A stretch of 64,000 nucleotides of DNA from Theionarchaea archaeon (GCA_018992685.1 JACVGT010000002.1:16294-80293); one strand, 5' to 3'; counted from the first letter of the stretch, positions 1-26,350 are shown. Notes: generated by a model from the letters alone, not told the origin. A program made the numbers and translations.

Positions 1-1202
1 TAGATATATACACCGGGAGCTGTGATATCGGGCTTTATTCTGTCGTCAGTAGTAGGACCTCTGGAAGAGAAGCTGGCAAGAGCATCTGACTTGTCAGAAG
101 CACCAACAGTGATGACATCTGTTGCATCACCAGGTGTGCTAATGGTGCAGCATGCTGAACCATCATTTCCAGCAGCACATACGACGACAACACCCTGACC
201 TACAGCCCAGTTGCACTCCTTAGCCAATGCGCTAGTACCGTCGCCACCGCTTCCACCTAAAGACAGTGACTCCACATCTGCTCCCTGGGCAACTCCGAAG
301 TCAATACCCTGGATGATAGCACTGTCAGTGCATTGTCCGCCAGAAGTACATACTTTGGCCATCATGAGGTCTGCACCAGGTGCAACACCCTCAGGACTGT
401 CTTCGCCAGCGGCAATGGATGAGCAGTGGGTACCGTGTCCATGGTCATCGTAAGGTGTGGATTGACTGTTGACGTAGTCTGCCCAGGCAATGATCTTCCC
501 AGAGGGGAAGTCACAGTGGTTGGGGTCAATACCAGTGTCGATGATACATATTTTAATTCCAGTACCATCGTATCCAGCATACCAGCAGTCATCTGCGTTG
601 ATCAGCGGGATACTGTCAGATAAGGTGACGTAGGCGACACCGTCAGCTTCTACGAACTCAACCTCAGCGACCTCAGACAGAGCTTTGATGTTGGACACAC
701 GAATGTCCACAACAGCACCCATGCCACTGAGGAAGTTGTAGTAGACACTGCCGAATTTTTCCAGTTTGCTGGCAGCGTTGGGATTCTTGAACCATACTAG
801 AGTTCTTACAATGTCGTTTCCGTTCATGCCATTGATCTGGTCCTTGATTGACCACTTCATTTTGGCCACGTTGTTCGGTACGACGGCGACATATTCGTTA
901 GAACCTACTTCAGTTAAGTAGGCCATTGGTATCATGAAATCGGTATCACTGATCTGGACAATGGGAAGGTATTCTACATTGATTTCCTTCGTCACTCTGT
1001 TCAGAACACCAGAGCCAACCGATATGTACAGGAAGTCAGAATCTTCCCCTGTAATATCCATGTTGAGCTTCAGCAGGTCTCTTCCCTCGTATCCAAAAGT
1101 CTGGACGTGAATTACTCCCTTGGTGGGCTTAGCACTCACGGCAACTAGTGAGAAAACAAGCATACTTATTGTGGCAAGCACGAAGATCTTTCGACTCTTC
1201 AT
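1..1202 (-). CDS. Secreted S8 (subtilisin-like) serine protease; 3' end runs off the window
   Basis: Not in the ORF track because it is open at the edge. Hand translation from ATG 1202 (RBS GGAGGTGA) gives MKSRKIFVLATISMLVFSLVAVSAKP..., with catalytic motifs IIDTGID and DDHGHGTHCSSI. Paralogue of 5727..7277. Confidence 0.9.
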   Translation of the reverse strand, partial: MKSRKIFVLATISMLVFSLVAVSAKPTKGVIHVQTFGYEGRDLLKLNMDITGEDSDFLYISVGSGVLNRVTKEINVEYLPIVQISDTDFMIPMAYLTEVGSNEYVAVVPNNVAKMKWSIKDQINGMNGNDIVRTLVWFKNPNAASKLEKFGSVYYNFLSGMGAVVDIRVSNIKALSEVAEVEFVEADGVAYVTLSDSIPLINADDCWYAGYDGTGIKICIIDTGIDPNHCDFPSGKIIAWADYVNSQSTPYDDHGHGTHCSSIAAGEDSPEGVAPGADLMMAKVCTSGGQCTDSAIIQGIDFGVAQGADVESLSLGGSGGDGTSALAKECNWAVGQGVVVVCAAGNDGSACCTISTPGDATDVITVGASDKSDALASFSSRGPTTDDRIKPDITAPGVYI

Positions 1203-1269
1203 TTCTTCACCTCCTTTTTCCTTGTTATGCAGCTGCACAAGGCAGGCACACATTTCTGTTTGCCCTCAT

Positions 1270-1454: not shown

Positions 1455-2690
1455 TCACCGAACTACCCACGACACGATGAGGACAATCAGGAAGGTCACA
1501 GCAGTCAGTATTCCAAAGAAAACCAGAACGGCAAAGAAGATCAGTGCACTCATTTGCGGGCTGCTCAGAGGATTGGAAAGGAATGCAAGGAGTAAAGCAG
1601 GAACCACAAGATACTCATAGTCTTTGAGCCAGGACTCGACTCTGGTACCCCATCGTTCACTGTCCATTCTCACAGTGTTTATCATGAGAACACTTCCCGT
1701 ATATCCCAGGAGAAGACCGAAGGCTGTGTAGCTATACGTGATGACCTGCAACTGGAATGCGCTGAGAGCTCCAGCATCCAGGATTCCAAGAAAATCAGCA
1801 ATGTTCAGCCCAAAAAACATGAATATCTGGGGAAGCAGTCCAGGGACGTAGAACTTCCAGGTGTGCAGCTTCTCGAAAAGGGTTTTCTCGAAGAGGAGGA
1901 AAGCAATGAATACTCCCAGGAATATGCCAGTGCACCCCGAACAGGTTACAAATTGCTTTCCTGCAAAGAAATAGGAAGAGGCTCCCCACTGGTCACAGAA
2001 CACTCCACCGAACCTGAACAGGTATTTGTACAATGCTTCTGTCCATTCAGGTGCTGTCACAATCCATGACGGCATTGAGGTCATATTACTGTATACCAGA
2101 ACGTCCCAGATGACATGACTTATGGCAGGGGCCAGCAGATTCCGTATCTTCTCCATTTCTATGCTCAAGATCACTGATCCGATGCAACTGATGACCACAA
2201 TCTCGGCCAAGGACAGGGGGGAACGCAGGGAATAGAATACTGACACTTTGTACAGTCCAAACAGTGCCGTAACAATGATGACCTTGCTCACAAATCCAAA
2301 GCTCTCGGACAGTTTCCCCTGAAGATATCCTCTGAAGAAGAACTCTTCCGCAGCAGCTACCACTGTAACAGCAGCCACAATAGATGCATTAAAAGCAATG
2401 GTGGACAGACTCAGTCTCTCATAGACTACATATATGAGGAACATTGCCAGTCCAAGCACCAATCCCACTCCAATGTTCAGGGGCAAATCCTGATTCTTGA
2501 GTTGAAAGTCGTCAAACCCTCTTAGGGTACTGCTCCACACATATAGGACACCCAAGAATAGTGCAATTGACACCAGTTGTGCCCAGCTATCTCCGGTGTA
2601 GTACAGATAGATGACGGCGCACAGGCCGAGGGTGGCTATGATAGCCTGATTCGAAATCGAAATTGAACGTATCTTTTCAGTCACATTCAT
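1455..2690 (-). CDS. CPBP-family (Rce1/Abi, CAAX-type) intramembrane glutamic protease fused to a C-terminal DUF2085-like membrane domain
   Basis: Motifs AEEFFFRGY (EExxxR) and AISHVIWD. C-terminal FCDQ...SYFFAGKQFVTCSGCTGIFLG resembles the DUF2085 CHQ...CARC.G motif. Start placed at ATG 2690, which overlaps the ubiA stop (ATGA). Confidence 0.75.
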   Translation of the reverse strand: MNVTEKIRSISISNQAIIATLGLCAVIYLYYTGDSWAQLVSIALFLGVLYVWSSTLRGFDDFQLKNQDLPLNIGVGLVLGLAMFLIYVVYERLSLSTIAFNASIVAAVTVVAAAEEFFFRGYLQGKLSESFGFVSKVIIVTALFGLYKVSVFYSLRSPLSLAEIVVISCIGSVILSIEMEKIRNLLAPAISHVIWDVLVYSNMTSMPSWIVTAPEWTEALYKYLFRFGGVFCDQWGASSYFFAGKQFVTCSGCTGIFLGVFIAFLLFEKTLFEKLHTWKFYVPGLLPQIFMFFGLNIADFLGILDAGALSAFQLQVITYSYTAFGLLLGYTGSVLMINTVRMDSERWGTRVESWLKDYEYLVVPALLLAFLSNPLSSPQMSALIFFAVLVFFGILTAVTFLIVLIVSWVVR

Positions 2691-3547
2691 GATATTCCTC
2701 CTGCATAGGTGATTCCTGAGAGCAGAATGCTTGCTGTGCAAAAAAAGAAGCAGTTTATATAAGCTTTTTCATAAGAGTTGGTGTTGCCCATGAGTATGTG
2801 GATGTAGGCCATCCAGGGCACCAGGCCCAGATATACGAGGAACCATGGAGAGAATAACCCTGCAACAGCCAGTATTGGAAATCCCACCACAGGCACAGCA
2901 AGGCCCCCCATGACCACAGCGCGCGATGTGTTGATCCCCATGGTGAGAGGAACAGTGTCCACGTCAAGAGCGTCATCACCTTTGAGATCAATGAAATCTT
3001 TGCTGATACTGGCCCCTGCGGTTTGTGCAGTGAGAAGGGCAGCAATGATCATAATATCAGAATTCAGTGAGGAGTAGATGTCAAACCCACCGACGAGAGG
3101 TATCAAAACATACCCAGCTGCAATTGCCAGCGGTGCAGCCGCACCACGTGCCTTTATGCGGGTTGGCCGGATGGAGTAGGTTGTTGCCAAGATGAGACCT
3201 GCTATCACAAAGAGGGAACGGGTCAGGTCGAGGAACACTATTGACAAGAGGAGACCGCCCACAAAAAGGAATGCGGAAAAGTATAAAACTGTCTCTTTCT
3301 TTACGATGCCTTTGGGTATTGCCCTATCAGGACGTGTAATCCTGTCGATTCTGTAATCTGTGTATGCATTGAGGCTGTTGGCGTACCCCAGTATGAACAC
3401 AGGGAATAAAACGGCAATAAAGACAATGTCCTGGAGAGGAGGTATTCCCCGTAACGCAATCATCATTCCGGCCAGGATCGTGACGATTACAGAAACCCAG
3501 GTCATAGGGCGCATGGTTCGAATAAGTGCGACTGCTTTCGTAATCAT
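2687..3547 (-). CDS. UbiA-family prenyltransferase (DGGGP-synthase-like)
   Basis: RP N-terminal motif, Asp-rich motifs NAYTDYRIDRITRPDRAIPKG and KDFIDLKGD, multiple TM segments. Start is 3547 or 3571. Confidence 0.85.
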   Translation of the reverse strand: MITKAVALIRTMRPMTWVSVIVTILAGMMIALRGIPPLQDIVFIAVLFPVFILGYANSLNAYTDYRIDRITRPDRAIPKGIVKKETVLYFSAFLFVGGLLLSIVFLDLTRSLFVIAGLILATTYSIRPTRIKARGAAAPLAIAAGYVLIPLVGGFDIYSSLNSDIMIIAALLTAQTAGASISKDFIDLKGDDALDVDTVPLTMGINTSRAVVMGGLAVPVVGFPILAVAGLFSPWFLVYLGLVPWMAYIHILMGNTNSYEKAYINCFFFCTASILLSGITYAGGIS

Positions 3548-3751
3548 GCTATGTGGAACCCCAGCCTCCATAAAAGGTTTTCGATATGAAAGAGATTGAC
3601 CCAGGTGTGTGATAGTATATAAGAGGTACGTGATTTGATGACTGGTACTTTCTAACTTCTGAAGAAGAAGACCATGAATACCCGAAAAATCTTCAGGCTA
3701 GATTCGGGAAAGGTAGGAGAAAAAGAAAAAGGAAATAAGAGAGAAGTTGAC

Positions 3752-5608
3752 CTATCTCTTTCTGAACACTTCTACAGAACCAAAGAGCAGCAGTATTCCC
3801 AGGAGGACTGTTCCAAGGCAGCTTCCGCTGTTATCAACAGTCACAGTTATTGTATCGTCATCCACCAACTGACTGCTGGCATTGTATCCTTCAGCCTTCA
3901 CCGTGTGGCTGGCGTCAGAGTACTGGGTTGTGTCCCAGCTCCACGAGAATGGGGATGTACTGTCTGTGGCCACGTTCGTGCCGTCTATGTAAAACTTGAC
4001 GGATGTGACTTCTGTGCTGGTGTCTACGGTGACGCTAACTGTGCCAGAAACGGTCTGGCCCTGCGAGGGGTTGGTTATAGAGACTGCTGGAATGACCTTG
4101 TATGGATTGTCTGCGCAGTCGATAAAGTAGAGGGCACCTTGGTAGTTGTTTGCACACAGTGTGGGCAGCACTGAAGGCGGTGGGTAGAATTCTCCTCCCT
4201 CCAACTCAACTGTGAAGGAGAAGCACGGCATAGCGTCATTCTGTGTTACTCCGTAACTCCAGTCATCAGTAGTCCCAGAAGCCAGGTACAAATCTGCAGA
4301 CTGCTGAGCTGTGTATCCAACGTAGCTAGCATACTTGGCACCCATGGTCTCGTGAACCTTTCGGTCGCTTGCATCTGAAATAGCATCATAAGTGTAACCC
4401 CACGGCCAGAGTACTAGCTCGCCGTAAGAGTGGTAGGTCAGTAGCACATTGATATCAGGATGAGCATTGAAGAAGTCCCTTACAACTGCCGTCTCGGGAG
4501 CGTCAAAGGCCTCATACCCCCGGAAGGTGTCACTGGTGCAGTAGCCTGAAGAGCCGCTTCCACCCCATCCGTAGGAGTAGTTTCTGTTCAGATCAGTCCC
4601 AATGCCACCATCGCATGGCTGTCTGTTCTTTCTCCAGCTGAGTCCGCTGCCTGAGTAGCCACCAGAGTCATCATATACTTTACCATCTGGATTGATGATG
4701 GGCACAATGTAGATTTCTCTGTTATTCACCAGATCAGTGATTGTCTGATTCGAACCGTAGTTGTCAGTCAGCTGATTTATGATGTACATGGCAACTTCTA
4801 CTGTAGCACATTCTCTTGCGTGGTGCAGGGCACAGAAGAAGATCTCGGCTTCAGATTCTTCAGTTGCAACGTTGTCTGAAATTTTGAGGTATGGGATGGT
4901 TCTGCCTTCATATGAAGTCCCGAGAGAATATACTTTGGCAATGGACGAGTGATCCGATTCAATCTGACTGAGTTCACTGACGACTTCAGCGTAGGTGTGG
5001 TACTCATCTTCTATTACCAAGATCGACGGGCTGTCCACCACCTCAACGGTAAACCCAGAGAGGCAGAGTGCTATCAGACCTTCATAGGATACTAGAACAT
5101 TCATGTATCCCTCTTTAAGGTTCACTCCTGCAACGTCTACACCACTGATTGCCACCAGGGTTCTCAGGTACTTGTTGTTGGCGTACACTTTGACTTGAAG
5201 CTGCTCTGCTCCAATGTATTGATCGAACTCGGATGTGTCAATTTCCTTCTTCAGCACTGAGTGGGGCAGTTTGATCACGTAATCATTGAGTCCTTTCTGT
5301 TTGAGATCACTCTTGGCGATAGTCACTACAAAATAGCCTTGTCCAACTCCGGTGACTGTCAAATCAACGTATTTGACAGCTGAAGCTATGGCAAAATGAT
5401 ACTGGAACATTGCCATGTCCAGGTCAGTGAACTTACAGGTGATTGTCTTTTTGTCTTCCGAAATCTTTTCCAGTTGCAGGACGACAATATCCTCTTTTTC
5501 TCCTGCAATCTGAACGTGGACGGTAACTGTGTTTCCGAGTCCAGTGGCTGCTGCAGATAAAGCGAGTATAGCTGTTAGGAATACTAGAGCTCCGATTTTA
5601 CCTTTCAT
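3752..5608 (-). CDS. Secreted M14 zinc carboxypeptidase (carboxypeptidase T-like) with Ig-like domain and C-terminal CLGT-TM-basic tail
   Basis: Signal peptide; HHAREC (HxxE), WRKNR, DLNRN, TYHSY, FTVEL; Ig-like domain; ends NSGSCLGTVLLGILLLFGSVEVFRKR. ATG 5608 follows GGAGGTGA. Confidence 0.9.
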   Translation of the reverse strand: MKGKIGALVFLTAILALSAAATGLGNTVTVHVQIAGEKEDIVVLQLEKISEDKKTITCKFTDLDMAMFQYHFAIASAVKYVDLTVTGVGQGYFVVTIAKSDLKQKGLNDYVIKLPHSVLKKEIDTSEFDQYIGAEQLQVKVYANNKYLRTLVAISGVDVAGVNLKEGYMNVLVSYEGLIALCLSGFTVEVVDSPSILVIEDEYHTYAEVVSELSQIESDHSSIAKVYSLGTSYEGRTIPYLKISDNVATEESEAEIFFCALHHARECATVEVAMYIINQLTDNYGSNQTITDLVNNREIYIVPIINPDGKVYDDSGGYSGSGLSWRKNRQPCDGGIGTDLNRNYSYGWGGSGSSGYCTSDTFRGYEAFDAPETAVVRDFFNAHPDINVLLTYHSYGELVLWPWGYTYDAISDASDRKVHETMGAKYASYVGYTAQQSADLYLASGTTDDWSYGVTQNDAMPCFSFTVELEGGEFYPPPSVLPTLCANNYQGALYFIDCADNPYKVIPAVSITNPSQGQTVSGTVSVTVDTSTEVTSVKFYIDGTNVATDSTSPFSWSWDTTQYSDASHTVKAEGYNASSQLVDDDTITVTVDNSGSCLGTVLLGILLLFGSVEVFRKR

Positions 5609-5692
5609 GTCTTTCACCTCCTTTTGATTTGTCTCATTAGTGAGCTAATGAGCGTGATGCATGATATGATACGGTATGATGTGGTGAGCGTA

Positions 5693-5716
5693 AAAGAGAA
5701 ATAAAAAAGAAAAAAA
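5693..5716 (-). terminator. Oligo-T archaeal terminator after S8 protease 2
   Basis: A-rich run on the plus strand (T-rich on minus) just downstream of the stop at 5727. Confidence 0.4.
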
Positions 5717-5726
5717 GATGAATGAT

Positions 5727-7277
5727 TTATCTCCGCTTGAGTGCTACACCCAGCAATACGAGAGCAGATACAAAGGCAGTTCCAAGGCAGGTACCGCCAC
5801 ACTCACAACCACAATCTCCATCAGCTGGTGGAGACACACTGGGGTTGCTGATGATCTGCTGTACCGCAGCGTATGCATCTACACGGCCCCATCCCCACAG
5901 GCAGTCTTTGTTGACATTGCCCTTGTCGATGGCAGTTGCACCCATGCAGTTCTTGACCTGCAACGGGGTGGCTGTACCACGGGCATCCAGCATCAAGGCA
6001 GCAACACCTGCAATGTGCGGTGTGGCCATTGAAGTACCAGACATGGCAACATCACTGCATGAGGTTCCTGCATCGGCAGCGTAGATTGACACACCAGGAG
6101 CTGTGATGTCGGGCTTTATCCTGTCGTCAGTGGTAGGACCTCTGGAAGAGAAGCTGGCAAGAGCATCTGACTTGTCAGAAGCACCAACAGTGATGACATC
6201 TGTTGCATCACCAGGTGTGCTAATGGTGCAGCAAGTTGAACCATCATTTCCAGCAGCACAAGCAACGACAGCGCCCTGACCTACAGCCCAGTTGCACTCC
6301 TGAGCCAAGGTGCTGGTACCGTCGCCACCGCTTCCACCTAAGGACAGAGACAATACATCTGCTCCCTGAGCGACTGCCCAGTCAATACCCTGGACGATAG
6401 CAGTTGTGGTACCGGACCCGGAAGAGTTCAGCACCTTTGCACCCATCAATGAAGCAGCCTTGGCTACACCATATGGTGATGCAGCACCTGCAGCAATGGA
6501 TGCGCAGTGAGTACCGTGTCCATGGTCATCGTAGGCTGTGGTCTTGCTGTTGACATAGTCCACGAATTTCACAATCTTCCCAGAGGGGAAGTCACAGTGG
6601 TTGGGGTCAATACCAGTGTCAATGATGCAGATCTTAATTCCAGCACCATCGTATCCGGCATTCCAGCAGTCATCTGCGTTGATCAGAGGTACACTGGAAG
6701 ACAGTGTTGCGTAGACAATGGCGTCATCTTCCAGGAACAGAATTCCAGCATCCTCAGACAGTGCCTTGATGTTGGAAACAGCGATGGTCATGGATGCTCC
6801 CAGTCCACTGGCAAACTCGTAGGTGACTGTACCGAATTTGGTGAGGTCGACAGCTCCGCCCTTGTACATAACCATGATGTCCATCAGATCATTGCCGTTC
6901 TTTCCAGCGATCTTGTCCTTCAAGTTCCACTTGATCTTGGTGACATCGTTGGGGACGACAGCGACGAATTCATTGTCACCCACCTCAGTCAGATATGCTT
7001 TGGGGATGCCAAAGGTCGTCTCATTGATCTGGACAATGGGCAGCTTGTCAACGTTGATCTCCTTCTCGATTCTGTTGAGCATTCCGGGGTTGACGTTAAC
7101 ATAAATGTAGCCGGAGTCTTCACCAGTGATGTCAACGTTGAGTTTCAGAACGTCTCTTCCCTCAAATCCGAAAGTTTGAACGTGAATTGTTGCGTTGGTG
7201 GGCTTAGCACTAACAGCAATCAGTGAGAAAACAAGCATAGCCACTGTAGCAAGCACAAATACCTTTCGCGTTTTCAT
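5727..7277 (-). CDS. Secreted S8 serine protease with C-terminal CLGT-TM-basic tail
   Basis: Triad motifs IIDTGID, HGHGTH and SGTSMATPH; signal peptide; ends CGCECGGTCLGTAFVSALVLLGVALKRR. Confidence 0.93.
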   Translation of the reverse strand: MKTRKVFVLATVAMLVFSLIAVSAKPTNATIHVQTFGFEGRDVLKLNVDITGEDSGYIYVNVNPGMLNRIEKEINVDKLPIVQINETTFGIPKAYLTEVGDNEFVAVVPNDVTKIKWNLKDKIAGKNGNDLMDIMVMYKGGAVDLTKFGTVTYEFASGLGASMTIAVSNIKALSEDAGILFLEDDAIVYATLSSSVPLINADDCWNAGYDGAGIKICIIDTGIDPNHCDFPSGKIVKFVDYVNSKTTAYDDHGHGTHCASIAAGAASPYGVAKAASLMGAKVLNSSGSGTTTAIVQGIDWAVAQGADVLSLSLGGSGGDGTSTLAQECNWAVGQGAVVACAAGNDGSTCCTISTPGDATDVITVGASDKSDALASFSSRGPTTDDRIKPDITAPGVSIYAADAGTSCSDVAMSGTSMATPHIAGVAALMLDARGTATPLQVKNCMGATAIDKGNVNKDCLWGWGRVDAYAAVQQIISNPSVSPPADGDCGCECGGTCLGTAFVSALVLLGVALKRR

Positions 7278-9564: not shown

Positions 9565-9742
9565 GAGGCGTCCCCTCTGTAAGAGGCTATAACCCTTTGG
9601 TGTGCACTTCAGAGTGCTGACTGATAGATACTGATAGTAGGAAAGGAAAACCTTTTAACGGTTTAGTGGAATGTCTGTACATCATGAGCTCTTCACATTC
9701 AATGAGATATTGCTTGAAGAGTTCTCTCGCGGAAGTGGGATC

Positions 9743-10435
9743 GTGAAATACCAATGGGTCATTTCTGTTCTGGTAGGGATGGTGCTTCTTACACCACTTG
9801 GCCAGGCCGGTACCGAGTATGTGTGGACTGAGAGAGGGTGTAATGCATCATATACTGTTGGAGAGAAGATCACAGTCTATTTTGTAACGATCAAGGATGT
9901 AGAATTTGAATTGTGGGCCTATGACGTTCTTATGAGAGAAACCGTGCTTGCATCAGGAGTAGGTGACGGAAGTACTTTCTTCGTTGAAGTAACTGCATCC
10001 ATGCCGTCTGGCCCGTTCACCTTTGTGCTGAAGATGCCCTGCAATGAGGAATGCGAGGCATGTCTGTGTGATCTTGACCAGTGTACGCTGCACATCCAGG
10101 AGGAGGAGTGCGAAGGCCACTGCTCCAACGGCAAGCAGGACTGCGGAGAACGCGGTATAGACTGCGGCGGGGGATGTCCCTTCACGGATTCTGATGATGA
10201 TGGAATAGAAGATTGCAGGGACCAATGTCCTGATACTGAGTGCAGAAGTATTAGTTTGAATGGATGCGAATTGGATTCAGATGGTGATTCCATCGGCGAT
10301 TGTTCGGACCAGTGTCCTTTGAGGAGAGGAGACTTATCCAATGGTGGATGCCCCACCGGGATGAATTATCCCCTGTATCTGGTAGGGGGTGTAGCAATTG
10401 TGGCAGCAGGCATTGCCGTGTGGAAGCTCAGATAG
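9743..10435 (+). CDS. Secreted/surface Cys-rich protein with thrombospondin type-3-like Ca-binding repeats and C-terminal TM anchor
   Basis: Signal peptide from GTG 9743; CSNGKQDCGERGIDCGGGC; DSDDDGIEDCRDQCP and DSDGDSIGDCSDQCP repeats; C-terminal TM plus KLR. Confidence 0.75.
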   Translation: MKYQWVISVLVGMVLLTPLGQAGTEYVWTERGCNASYTVGEKITVYFVTIKDVEFELWAYDVLMRETVLASGVGDGSTFFVEVTASMPSGPFTFVLKMPCNEECEACLCDLDQCTLHIQEEECEGHCSNGKQDCGERGIDCGGGCPFTDSDDDGIEDCRDQCPDTECRSISLNGCELDSDGDSIGDCSDQCPLRRGDLSNGGCPTGMNYPLYLVGGVAIVAAGIAVWKLR

Positions 10436-24817: not shown

Positions 24818-26350
24818 ATGATACGCACAGCATCATTTACTCGTGCTTTCCTTGAAACAGGACTGCCTGTCTGGCTACTTTTTGCTGCATTGCAGGTGGT
24901 TCAGGAAAATCGATCCCCCGGGATTATCGTCTTTTTCGCTCCTGTGTGGGGTGCTATTCGCCTTACCCAGCCCGATGGCTCATCCTGGAAGCGGCTGGAA
25001 TACTACGTCAGATTCTGTTTGCTTCATGTTGCTGCAATGCTTGTGGTGATGTATGCAGCTGGATACGTCTCCTACGTGGCGGGGGCAATTCCAGAGCCAC
25101 CCTCATGGACTTCTTTTAGCACTAACACATTTCTCTTGCTGACGATGATTATTATTCCGTTCGTTGCAGTGCGTGGGCTGCTATTCTTATGTGATTCATC
25201 TAGAGAACCAGGATTTCCAGCGCAGTCCTTCTCAGAAGAAAGAGGAGAAAGAACCAGAATATTCGCTTTTGATGCAGTACGTGGGTGGGTGATGATCTTC
25301 ATGGCCCTGGATCATGCGATGTACTTCTGCTATGTGCACATTTTTGCTGAAGGGTTTCAGAATTTACGGCCAGATCCCCTGCCTGATGCCATCCACTATT
25401 TGACCCGATTTGTCACCCACTACTGTGCCCCGACATTTATCTTCTTGGCTGGCGTGAGCGTAGCTCTCTATGGTGCATCACGCAGATCATATATGACAGA
25501 GGGGCGCATCACGAGACATCTGGTGACCCGGGGTGTTCTTCTCATCCTCTTACAGATGGTACTTGTGAACTGGGCATGGGGGTTCACCATCAGGGCCGGG
25601 CAGACTCTTGTGTACTTTGGAGTCCTGGCATGCATTGGATCAGGACTCGTCATACTGGCTCTCATAAGACGCGCCCCCTGCTCTCTGGTGATCATTGGCT
25701 CCGTGATGTTACTGTTGATGATTCCGGTATTACTGAGTACCTTCGCTGTGCAGCCGGGAGCTGATCAGCCGCTTCTTGAAATCCTCCTGCAACCTGACAC
25801 TGAAGGATGGATTAGTTCTCTCTACCCAATTCTTCCCTGGTTCGGCGTTATGGGGCTGGGATACGGGGTCGGAGTGGTAGTAAGCAGAAAGCCCGAAAAG
25901 ACCACGAGAGTGTTCCTGGTACTGGGGATTATTTTGCTGGTATCCTGGATTCTATTACGATTGGGTGGCGGCTACGGAAATCTGACCGTGTATCAGGGTG
26001 GAGACTGGAGGGATTTCATGCTCATGTCCAAGTATCCGCCCAGTCTCGTTTTCCTATGCTGGAATGTGGGGGGCATGGCACTGGCTATAGCTGTGCACAA
26101 CTATTTCGGGAGGAGATTGCCTTTCAGAAGATTCTGGGACAGCGTTGTCCTCTTCGGTCAAACACCTCTATTCTTTTACGTGGTTCACCTGTACCTATAC
26201 AGGACGCTTTCCCTGATCCCCGTTCTCAGAGGTTCCCTGGCTGCAGGATACGTGGCGTGGCTGGTGGGATTGATGGTGATGATCCTCCTTTGCAGACAGT
26301 ACCAGAGGCTGCAGAAAGCTCACCCTGATAGTGTCCTCAAGTATGTATAA
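24818..26350 (+). CDS. DUF1624 / heparan-alpha-glucosaminide N-acetyltransferase-like membrane protein with N-terminal TM extension
   Basis: RIFAFDAVRGWVMIFMALDH, TRFVTHYCAPTFIFLAG, YPILPW, KYPPSL, FGQTPLFFYVVH. Confidence 0.8.
   Translation: MIRTASFTRAFLETGLPVWLLFAALQVVQENRSPGIIVFFAPVWGAIRLTQPDGSSWKRLEYYVRFCLLHVAAMLVVMYAAGYVSYVAGAIPEPPSWTSFSTNTFLLLTMIIIPFVAVRGLLFLCDSSREPGFPAQSFSEERGERTRIFAFDAVRGWVMIFMALDHAMYFCYVHIFAEGFQNLRPDPLPDAIHYLTRFVTHYCAPTFIFLAGVSVALYGASRRSYMTEGRITRHLVTRGVLLILLQMVLVNWAWGFTIRAGQTLVYFGVLACIGSGLVILALIRRAPCSLVIIGSVMLLLMIPVLLSTFAVQPGADQPLLEILLQPDTEGWISSLYPILPWFGVMGLGYGVGVVVSRKPEKTTRVFLVLGIILLVSWILLRLGGGYGNLTVYQGGDWRDFMLMSKYPPSLVFLCWNVGGMALAIAVHNYFGRRLPFRRFWDSVVLFGQTPLFFYVVHLYLYRTLSLIPVLRGSLAAGYVAWLVGLMVMILLCRQYQRLQKAHPDSVLKYV

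Follow-up and report, generated by a model that had tools for sequence, protein, structure and literature searches.

A Cys-bearing C-terminal tail on exported proteins of Theionarchaea and a candidate operon for its maturation

Introduction

Four Cys-type C-terminal sorting signals are recognized in the portion of the Haft preprint that is drawn on here, each tied to an enzyme of the CPBP family, and a separate, as yet unidentified lipidation step is expected to accompany them (10.1101/2023.06.07.544157). Here we analyze a tail of this type, named CLGT after its four invariant residues, together with a neighbouring gene pair that encodes a UbiA-family prenyltransferase paralogue and a CPBP protein fused to a DUF2085-like domain. 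Both are found in a stretch of 64,000 nucleotides from a Theionarchaea archaeon (GCA_018992685.1, JACVGT010000002.1:16294-80293), which is the DNA that we analyzed and is called the window below; the host genome, an assembly of 3.03 Mb, is labelled G000.

Cleavage of a Cys-type tail that depends on the CPBP enzyme MrtX has been shown experimentally, and Lgt was proposed as a candidate for the lipidation; H188 of MrtX, the counterpart of the His in the FxxxH motif, belongs to a water-activating pair (mBio 2025, PMC11980579, in the sections cited). Rce1 and MmRce1 cut only once the Cys has been lipidated, and the enzyme that attaches the lipid to prokaryotic Cys tails is described in the same portions of both papers as unidentified, as a preliminary description of the window had also stated (10.1101/2023.06.07.544157, PMC11980579). 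In archaea, two further systems are relevant. In Methanosarcina, the gene of the sorting enzyme, artA, is a neighbour of pssA and pssD, two genes of lipid synthesis; homologues of these two are required for anchoring ArtA substrates in Haloferax, as reported in the part of the study used here (PMC7157517). The proteins AliA and AliB (arCOG02177/02178) lipidate N-terminal lipobox proteins in Haloferax and, in the account available to us, are experimentally supported archaeal components of Cys lipidation.

The preliminary description had noticed a shared tail on two unrelated secreted hydrolases of the window and had proposed that the adjacent UbiA protein adds an isoprenoid directly to the tail Cys, after which the CPBP protein clips the tail. 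We report below that the tail is a genome-wide feature and that the gene pair is conserved, and we weigh what the pair might do.

Results

CLGT is a genome-wide C-terminal tail

We counted CLGT in every open reading frame (ORF) of at least 80 aa in G000. The motif occurred 28 times, and 20 of these occurrences were within the last 35 residues; 19 of the 20 were tripartite tails composed of CLGT, a short membrane helix and basic residues, and the twentieth belonged to an unrelated repeat protein. This occurrence is far beyond chance. When 18 of the tails were aligned, the only invariant columns were C, L, G and T; a Gly at position -2 relative to the Cys was mostly conserved, and, in our reading, 15 of 18 tails kept a further Gly some 13 residues into the helix. 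The consensus of the tail can be written as G-x-C-[L/A]-G-[T/S], followed by a helix of 16-18 residues and a basic end.

A hidden Markov model (HMM) of the tail gave 22 matches in G000, three of which were variants (CLGS, CAGT and a Cys-less GAGLGT, the last on an ORF of 588 aa), and a crude filter for a helix with a basic end added a further CLGS tail and a further CAGT tail. The solute-binding protein encoded at G000:C15:55886-57808 has a CLGT tail with a truncated helix, which may be a decaying copy.

The carriers are diverse. A Pfam scan that took in 12 of the 19 carriers assigned them to S8 (two proteins), M14, C25 (gingipain-like), SBP_bac_5 (two proteins), metallo-beta-lactamase, Big_7, PD40, TPR and ABC_transp_aux/DUF4350, with one protein matching no family; ten different domain families are represented. 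Judged by eye, a signal-peptide-like N-terminus was present in at least 15 of the 19 carriers. These N-termini together with the tail suggest that the tail anchors the carriers in the membrane and that its Cys is exposed on the outer face.

Three properties of the Cys-type class of signals were found here: a tripartite tail (18 of 18 aligned, 19 in the genome), an invariant Cys (18 of 18, with GAGLGT as the one outlying variant that lacks it) and many unrelated carriers. When three tails were compared with the NCBIfam models at E-values up to 10, no model was matched at its cut-off, and matches were returned for the S8 tail only, at 12.7 bits on TIGR03382 (MYXO-CTERM, cut-off 15.85) and 10.8 bits on NF045638 (cut-off 440). 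A literature search for the name CLGT-CTERM did not find it. The tail seen at first on two hydrolases is therefore real and extends, by count, to 19 proteins of the genome. We conclude that CLGT is, almost certainly, a new Cys-type C-terminal sorting signal that is specific to a lineage of Theionarchaea.

The UbiA and CPBP-DUF2085 genes form a conserved coupled unit

The genes of the UbiA paralogue and of the CPBP-DUF2085 fusion overlap in the window by an ATGA, and the overlap was present in 9/9 loci (the window and eight others), with GGAGG upstream in 7/9. Seven of these were metagenome loci recovered through a DNA pattern for the DUF2085 motif. The UbiA gene was directly upstream of, and overlapping with, the fusion gene (61-67% identity) in all seven, and all seven also had a CLGT-tailed M14 gene, its orthologue of the window gene lying directly upstream of the UbiA gene or one gene off; a CLGT-tailed S8 gene was present in five. 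In the window, three CLGT-tailed genes flank the fusion gene. These data show that the UbiA and CPBP-DUF2085 genes are a conserved, translationally coupled unit, and the pairing proposed from the window alone was recovered in every locus. A search of genome contigs gave, among the matches listed, at least 18 loci of generic CPBP genes, none with a UbiA neighbour, a result that is uninformative on the fusion family.

The tail and the gene pair are confined to one lineage

The genomes compared were those of the GTDB class, which here equals the phylum, 133 genomes including G000. Matches to the tail HMM were limited to genus g1, where they occurred in all three genomes (G032 had 13 and G033 had 9, in addition to the 22 of G000); ten other genomes of the class gave single partial matches with E-values of 0.0088 or worse. 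In G031, which belongs to the other genus of the family and is 91% complete, neither a match to the tail HMM nor orthologues of the tailed S8 proteins were found.

The fusion was found in G000 and G032 only (80% identity) and not in the other 130 genomes. The contig of G032 begins within the UbiA gene and continues with the CPBP gene and then the S8 gene. In the third tail-bearing genome, G033 (84% complete), neither the UbiA gene nor the fusion gene was found; the syntenic contig of G033 (OB-fold, TctA, tailed S8 and M14 genes) stops inside the M14 gene, suggesting that the pair is unassembled there, not absent. The possibility that G033 truly lacks the pair was rejected on this ground.

In a collection of 5.8 billion proteins, the fusion gave 30 clusters at 59-100% identity, and the UbiA clade gave 36 clusters at 54-100% identity, with the next matches dropping to 44% and 28%. 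Both families were confined to Theionarchaea-like records, and many contigs of matching size appeared in the two lists. The full-length fusion was found in one cluster only among 1.84 billion representatives, and its next relatives were stand-alone CPBPs of about 215 aa with about 30% identity (P0033 to P0041).

The UbiA protein is not the housekeeping DGGGP synthase

The UbiA protein scored 104.9 bits on PF01040 (gathering threshold 34.2) and is one of eight UbiA-family genes of G000. On the model of digeranylgeranylglyceryl phosphate (DGGGP) synthase (NF009521 and relatives) it scored 90.6 bits against a cut-off of 296, whereas the paralogues on contigs C21 and C9 scored 260 and 244, respectively. 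The far better scores of these paralogues indicate that the UbiA protein of the window is not the housekeeping DGGGP synthase, and the idea that it could be the only such synthase of the genome, which the preliminary description had named as fatal to its proposal, does not agree with the data. The best NCBIfam matches of the protein were to the ChlG/BchG models, with scores that were also far below the cut-offs (105 bits vs 313, and 104 vs 212), and the closest solved structure was chlorophyll a synthase, at 99 bits vs 60 for DGGGP synthase.

The first Asp-rich motif is altered in this clade. It reads N-[A/M]-x-x-D-x-x-x-D, as all 14 clade members have Ala or Met in place of the first Asp of NDxxDxxxD, with N, D+4 and D+8 kept; the second Asp-rich motif (KDFIDLKGD) is kept. 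A search for longer, fused forms of the UbiA protein found none, which is weak evidence. Probably, as judged from the orthologues, the true start of the UbiA gene is at 3547.

Another, divergent UbiA paralogue (Pfam 45.7 bits) is located on the contig of the cluster at G000:C4:4414-5391, about 11 kb outside the window, where it adjoins a TldD/PmbA pair and a fused ABC permease.

The CPBP-DUF2085 fusion

The fusion scored 49.7 bits on PF02517 (gathering threshold 22.4) and, marginally, 26.2 bits on PF09858, the DUF2085 model (threshold 25). Of the CPBP motifs, EExxxR (E115, E116 and R120) was invariant in 19/19 sequences, and HxxxD (H192xxxD196) was likewise invariant in the fusion alignment. 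Three cysteines of the DUF2085 half (C232, C250 and C253) were also invariant. MrtA (NF040590) was not among the NCBIfam matches of the fusion. The AlphaFold2 model was moderate in quality, with a mean predicted local distance difference test (pLDDT) score of 69.7, and its best PDB match in a fold search was MmRce1 (4cad), with probability 1.0 and a template-modelling score of 0.51 on the target; when the fusion alignment was used as a profile against PDB sequences, no match was obtained.

Fusions of the reverse order, with DUF2085 at the N-terminus and CPBP at the C-terminus, were found in two metagenome proteins, P0094 and P0037 (413 and 422 aa), and in these the motif-2 His is intact. This order points to a second fusion event that took place separately, and thereby to a functional connection of the two domains. 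When the phylum was searched with P0094, the window-type fusion was the only match, and a look-up of P0094 in the ESM Atlas returned generic CPBP clusters only. No functional study of DUF2085 was found in the literature searched.

Predicted membrane topology

Helix boundaries were set from hydrophobicity and from the helices of the AlphaFold2 models, and Lys plus Arg (K+R) residues were counted over the orthologue alignments and interpreted by the positive-inside rule. The counts were 18.3 inside vs 5.3 outside for the fusion and 18.6 vs 1.7 for the UbiA protein, and we estimate from these models that the N-terminus is inside in both proteins. Both Asp-rich loops of the UbiA protein are then predicted to be cytoplasmic, and the three invariant cysteines of the fusion are predicted to be outside, in the DUF2085 loop. 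The tail Cys lies at the outer, extracytoplasmic end of the tail helix. The DUF2085 loop would thus be the only conserved reactive feature on the side of the tail Cys, and an Asp-rich active face in the cytoplasm with a Cys outside makes a direct prenylation of the exported Cys unlikely.

Features of the locus

The features are collected in Table 1. The gene positions of the preliminary description, all on the minus strand, were right, its M14 and S8 tails were identical to our translations, its domain calls (M14, S8, UbiA, Rce1-like and DUF2085) were borne out by Pfam, and the ATGA coupling was confirmed. The third S8 gene runs past the edge of the window, and its CLGT tail was found just beyond it at G000:C4:15942-16025 (tail HMM E-value 2.8e-11).

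Table 1. Features of the CLGT cluster in the window, with the variant tails of the host genome (coordinates of the variant tails are those of G000 contigs)
Feature	Coordinates	Strand	Evidence
S8 subtilase no. 3, N-terminal part; extends past the window edge	3..1253	-	ORF; full gene in G000
411-aa fusion of a CPBP (Rce1-like) intramembrane protease domain and a DUF2085-like membrane domain with a Cys cluster	1455..2690	-	Pfam PF02517 49.7 bits, PF09858 26.2 bits
ATGA, UbiA stop overlapping CPBP start	2687..2690	-	CPBP ATG 2690-2688, UbiA TGA 2689-2687
UbiA-superfamily prenyltransferase paralogue, chlorophyll-synthase-like branch	2687..3571	-	Pfam PF01040 104.9 bits
Secreted M14 carboxypeptidase with Big_7 domain and CLGT tail	3752..5617	-	Pfam Peptidase_M14 225 bits
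CLGT tail of the M14 protein: CLGT, hydrophobic helix, RKR	3755..3820	-	Translation; tail HMM E-value 3.1e-11
Secreted S8 subtilase with CLGT tail	5727..7277	-	Pfam Peptidase_S8 195.5 bits
CLGT tail of the S8 protein	5730..5789	-	Translation; tail HMM E-value 2.8e-11
Cys-rich membrane-anchored protein ending in GGCPTG, helix and KLR	9671..10435	+	ORF; no Pfam family
Variant tails in G000	C3:35690-35773, C22:49376-49447, C3:210614-210676, plus tails on C9 and C18		Two CLGS, two CAGT, one GAGLGT

The Cys-rich protein of Table 1 is a possible peripheral member of the cluster. It has Asp-rich repeats resembling calcium-binding repeats, and its GGCPTG tail was not matched by the tail HMM. The window copy is 6 kb from the cluster and on the opposite strand, and an orthologue with 54% identity lies between the M14 and UbiA genes in two metagenome loci (L059:7614-8387 and L065:4626-5399).

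Discussion

A candidate maturation operon

We consider, at about even odds and from sequence comparison, that the coupled UbiA and CPBP-DUF2085 operon is the maturation machinery of the CLGT tail. In such a scheme the CPBP half would clip the tail helix, as myxosortases do, and the DUF2085 half, which would expose its three invariant cysteines to the exterior, could interact with the CLGT motif. On the cytoplasmic face, the UbiA protein would supply an isoprenoid by building a dedicated donor lipid that is finally attached to the Cys or to the new C-terminus, in the manner of PssA/PssD for the archaeosortase. A role as a supplier of the lipid donor is more likely for the UbiA protein than a role as a direct Cys prenyltransferase. 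That the UbiA protein is the lipidating component, its isoprenoid being placed on the Cys or the new C-terminus, or a donor lipid of its making being transferred by the DUF2085 domain at the outer face, appears unlikely. Taken together, the explanation that we tentatively prefer, while giving it slightly less than an even chance, is a CLGT sorting signal matured by the UbiA and CPBP-DUF2085 operon with the UbiA protein as lipid donor.

Several observations weigh against this explanation. The FxxxH motif of CPBP proteins is replaced in the fusion by F144xxxK148, with the Lys invariant in 19/19 sequences and aligned by hhalign to the His of a canonical paralogue; the nearest stand-alone relatives (P0033 to P0041) also carry "YK" here. 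The fusion scored 32.5 bits on the Mrt_core model (NF040914), against a cut-off of 100. The glutamates of the CPBP half are estimated from the topology model to lie near the cytoplasmic end of transmembrane helix 4, far from the tail Cys. We know of no UbiA-family member that acts on or for a protein. A UbiA gene was found within 1.5 kb of mrtA, the gene of the CPBP enzyme of the Thermococcales, in 0/30 Thermococcaceae loci. The evidence from gene neighbourhood is weakened by synteny that extends for more than 10 kb (OB-fold, TctA, S8, M14, UbiA, CPBP and Lhr helicase genes), and since the synteny takes in the unrelated Lhr gene, adjacency to tailed genes may reflect an inherited order. Finally, all the evidence comes from one lineage and so amounts to roughly one evolutionary observation. 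The canonical CPBP encoded on contig C12 of G000 is a further difficulty: its orthologues occur in every tail-bearing genome (75% and 48% identity) and in 0/130 others, so that its profile matches the tail at least as well as the fusion does. The co-occurrence that the preliminary description had suggested examining gave a mixed picture: the pair was found only in lineages that have the tail (the fusion in two of three tail-bearing genomes, with the third broken at the locus), but a single lineage is concerned and a second CPBP fits the profile equally well.

Alternative explanations

The alternative that survives best, although we regard it as unlikely, is that the tail is handled by other enzymes: a CPBP of the C12 type or another protease would cut it, and an AliA-like or other transferase would modify it. 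The gene pair would then do another job, for example the tailoring of a membrane lipid or pigment, the CPBP half would be altered and possibly non-proteolytic, and the pair would stand near the tail genes by inherited order. The C12-type CPBP keeps FxxxH, has the best Pfam score (90.9 bits) and is the most MrtA-like CPBP of G000 (30.7 bits), in addition to its phyletic profile, and AliA and AliB, the supported archaeal components of Cys lipidation in the account mentioned above, are neither UbiA nor DUF2085 proteins. The synteny through Lhr and the His-to-Lys change of the fusion point in the same direction. However, the C12-type gene has no CLGT-tailed neighbour, whereas the fusion is flanked by three, and several other CPBP paralogues are genus-restricted as well, so that phyletic profiles do not discriminate among them.

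The proposal that the UbiA protein prenylates the tail Cys thiol directly and that the CPBP protein cuts after the prenyl-Cys, a CAAX-like route with a transferase of another family, was the one put forward in the preliminary description, and we now regard it as improbable. In its favour, the genes are coupled by ATGA in all nine loci and the pair is confined to tail-bearing lineages, the UbiA protein keeps motif 2 and most of motif 1, and C-L-G-T loosely resembles C-a-a-X. The requirement of Rce1 and MmRce1 for a lipidated Cys, and the gap left in the cited portions of the literature for the enzyme that modifies Cys tails, would also suit it. But the K+R counts given above place the Asp-rich loops in the cytoplasm, whereas the Cys borders a stop-transfer helix on the extracytoplasmic side. 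Prenyl diphosphates occur in the cytoplasm. The closest characterized relatives prenylate small molecules, chlorophyllide in the case of ChlG and geranylgeranylglyceryl phosphate (GGGP) in that of DGGGP synthase, and mrtA has no UbiA neighbour. These points, with the loss of the motif-2 His and a second CPBP of the same profile, do not support direct prenylation followed by clipping.

More improbable still is a tail that serves as a permanent membrane anchor, its Cys and LGT used for packing, a disulfide or metal binding with neither cleavage nor lipidation: 146 ORFs of G000 end in a helix with basic residues by the crude filter, 17 of them with CLGT, and one variant tail (GAGLGT) lacks the Cys, but four invariant residues at the helix boundary of unrelated proteins, in lineages whose enzymes are about 60% identical, fit recognition by an enzyme better, the helix is short at 16-18 residues, and a CPBP enzyme goes with each of the Cys-type tripartite tails described in the cited part of the preprint (10.1101/2023.06.07.544157).

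Implications

If the UbiA protein is the lipidating component, by either of the routes given above, it would stand as the first member of its family dedicated to anchoring proteins, and a first function would be assigned to DUF2085. Several phyla have Cys-type signals, for which one protease, MrtX, is validated; to these CLGT adds a compact two-gene candidate machine, and with it the question of the Cys-modifying enzyme can be put to the test by means of a single reporter and two genes. Such a system would also bear on how uncultured, protein-degrading archaea of sediments display proteases and peptide-binding proteins. Even if the link to UbiA fails, CLGT stands as a new family that is easy to model and has some 20 clients per genome.

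Comparison with known systems

CGP-CTERM/MrtA of the Thermococcales, which is an in silico prediction, resembles CLGT in that it is archaeal, belongs to the same GTDB class and has, in a tripartite tail, an invariant Cys next to a short helix, many exported carriers and a candidate enzyme of the CPBP family. It differs in its signature, CGP vs CLGT, and the CLGT tail HMM misses the Thermococcales tails; on the side of the enzyme, the CLGT candidate has the DUF2085 fusion, a Lys for the motif-2 His and a coupled UbiA gene. No orthologue of MrtA was found in G000, where the best match was 31.5 bits against a cut-off of 200. Within the same order (G002-G006 and G024-G030), MrtA-like CPBPs scored 176-192 bits against that cut-off in 5/6 genomes of family f2 and 5/7 of family f4, and a sixth f4 genome had a partial match of 119 bits. 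A system like MrtA/CGP-CTERM may thus extend beyond the Thermococcales, where the Haft preprint puts it.

A separate observation concerns the gene next to mrtA. In 21/30 loci (for example, L096:2089-2871), mrtA is immediately followed on its own strand by the gene of a membrane acyltransferase of the HGSNAT_cat/Acyl_transf_3 type (PF07786); most of the loci come from one genus and are not independent; PF07786 scored 209-232 bits in the two of the mrtA loci (L096-L125) that were scanned. The HGSNAT_cat family moves acyl groups across membranes, and this acyltransferase may be a candidate modifier of CGP-CTERM tails. The sole HGSNAT_cat homologue of G000 (65.6 bits) is at 24818-26350 on the plus strand of the window, about 17 kb from the cluster and not adjacent to it.

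MYXO-CTERM/MrtX of the Myxococcota shares with CLGT a Cys-type tripartite tail; there, a CPBP protease removes the tail and lipidation of the Cys has been proposed. It differs in being bacterial, in involving an outer membrane and a type II secretion step, neither of which is found in the CLGT host, and in that MrtX keeps the His. Eukaryotic CAAX processing (farnesyl or geranylgeranyl transferase, Rce1 and ICMT), together with MmRce1, has in common with CLGT the Rce1-like fold, a Cys followed by small or aliphatic residues and the notion that an isoprenoid is added and the protein cut. However, the CAAX motif supplies the four final residues of a cytosolic protein, whereas CLGT is followed by 16-21 residues and is found on exported proteins with signal-peptide-like N-termini, and the CAAX transferase is a soluble alpha/beta enzyme, whereas the candidate here is an integral-membrane UbiA protein.

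The closest relatives of the UbiA paralogue are ChlG/BchG and DGGGP synthase, with which it shares the topology and the second Asp-rich motif; it differs from ChlG and DGGGP synthase in that it is below every equivalog cut-off and has lost the first Asp of motif 1. The archaeosortase model PF09721 had no match in G000, but it matched only 1 of 14 control genomes, so that absence of an archaeosortase cannot be concluded from it; the control genomes missed included Haloferax volcanii, which has ArtA. ArtA/PGF-CTERM with PssA/PssD differs from CLGT in its Cys protease of an unrelated family, its Cys-less signal and its other families of lipid enzymes. In this system, nevertheless, the gene of a sorting enzyme lies beside genes of membrane-lipid synthesis that are needed for anchoring, and it is the best analogue of the role as lipid donor that we propose for the UbiA protein of the CLGT cluster.

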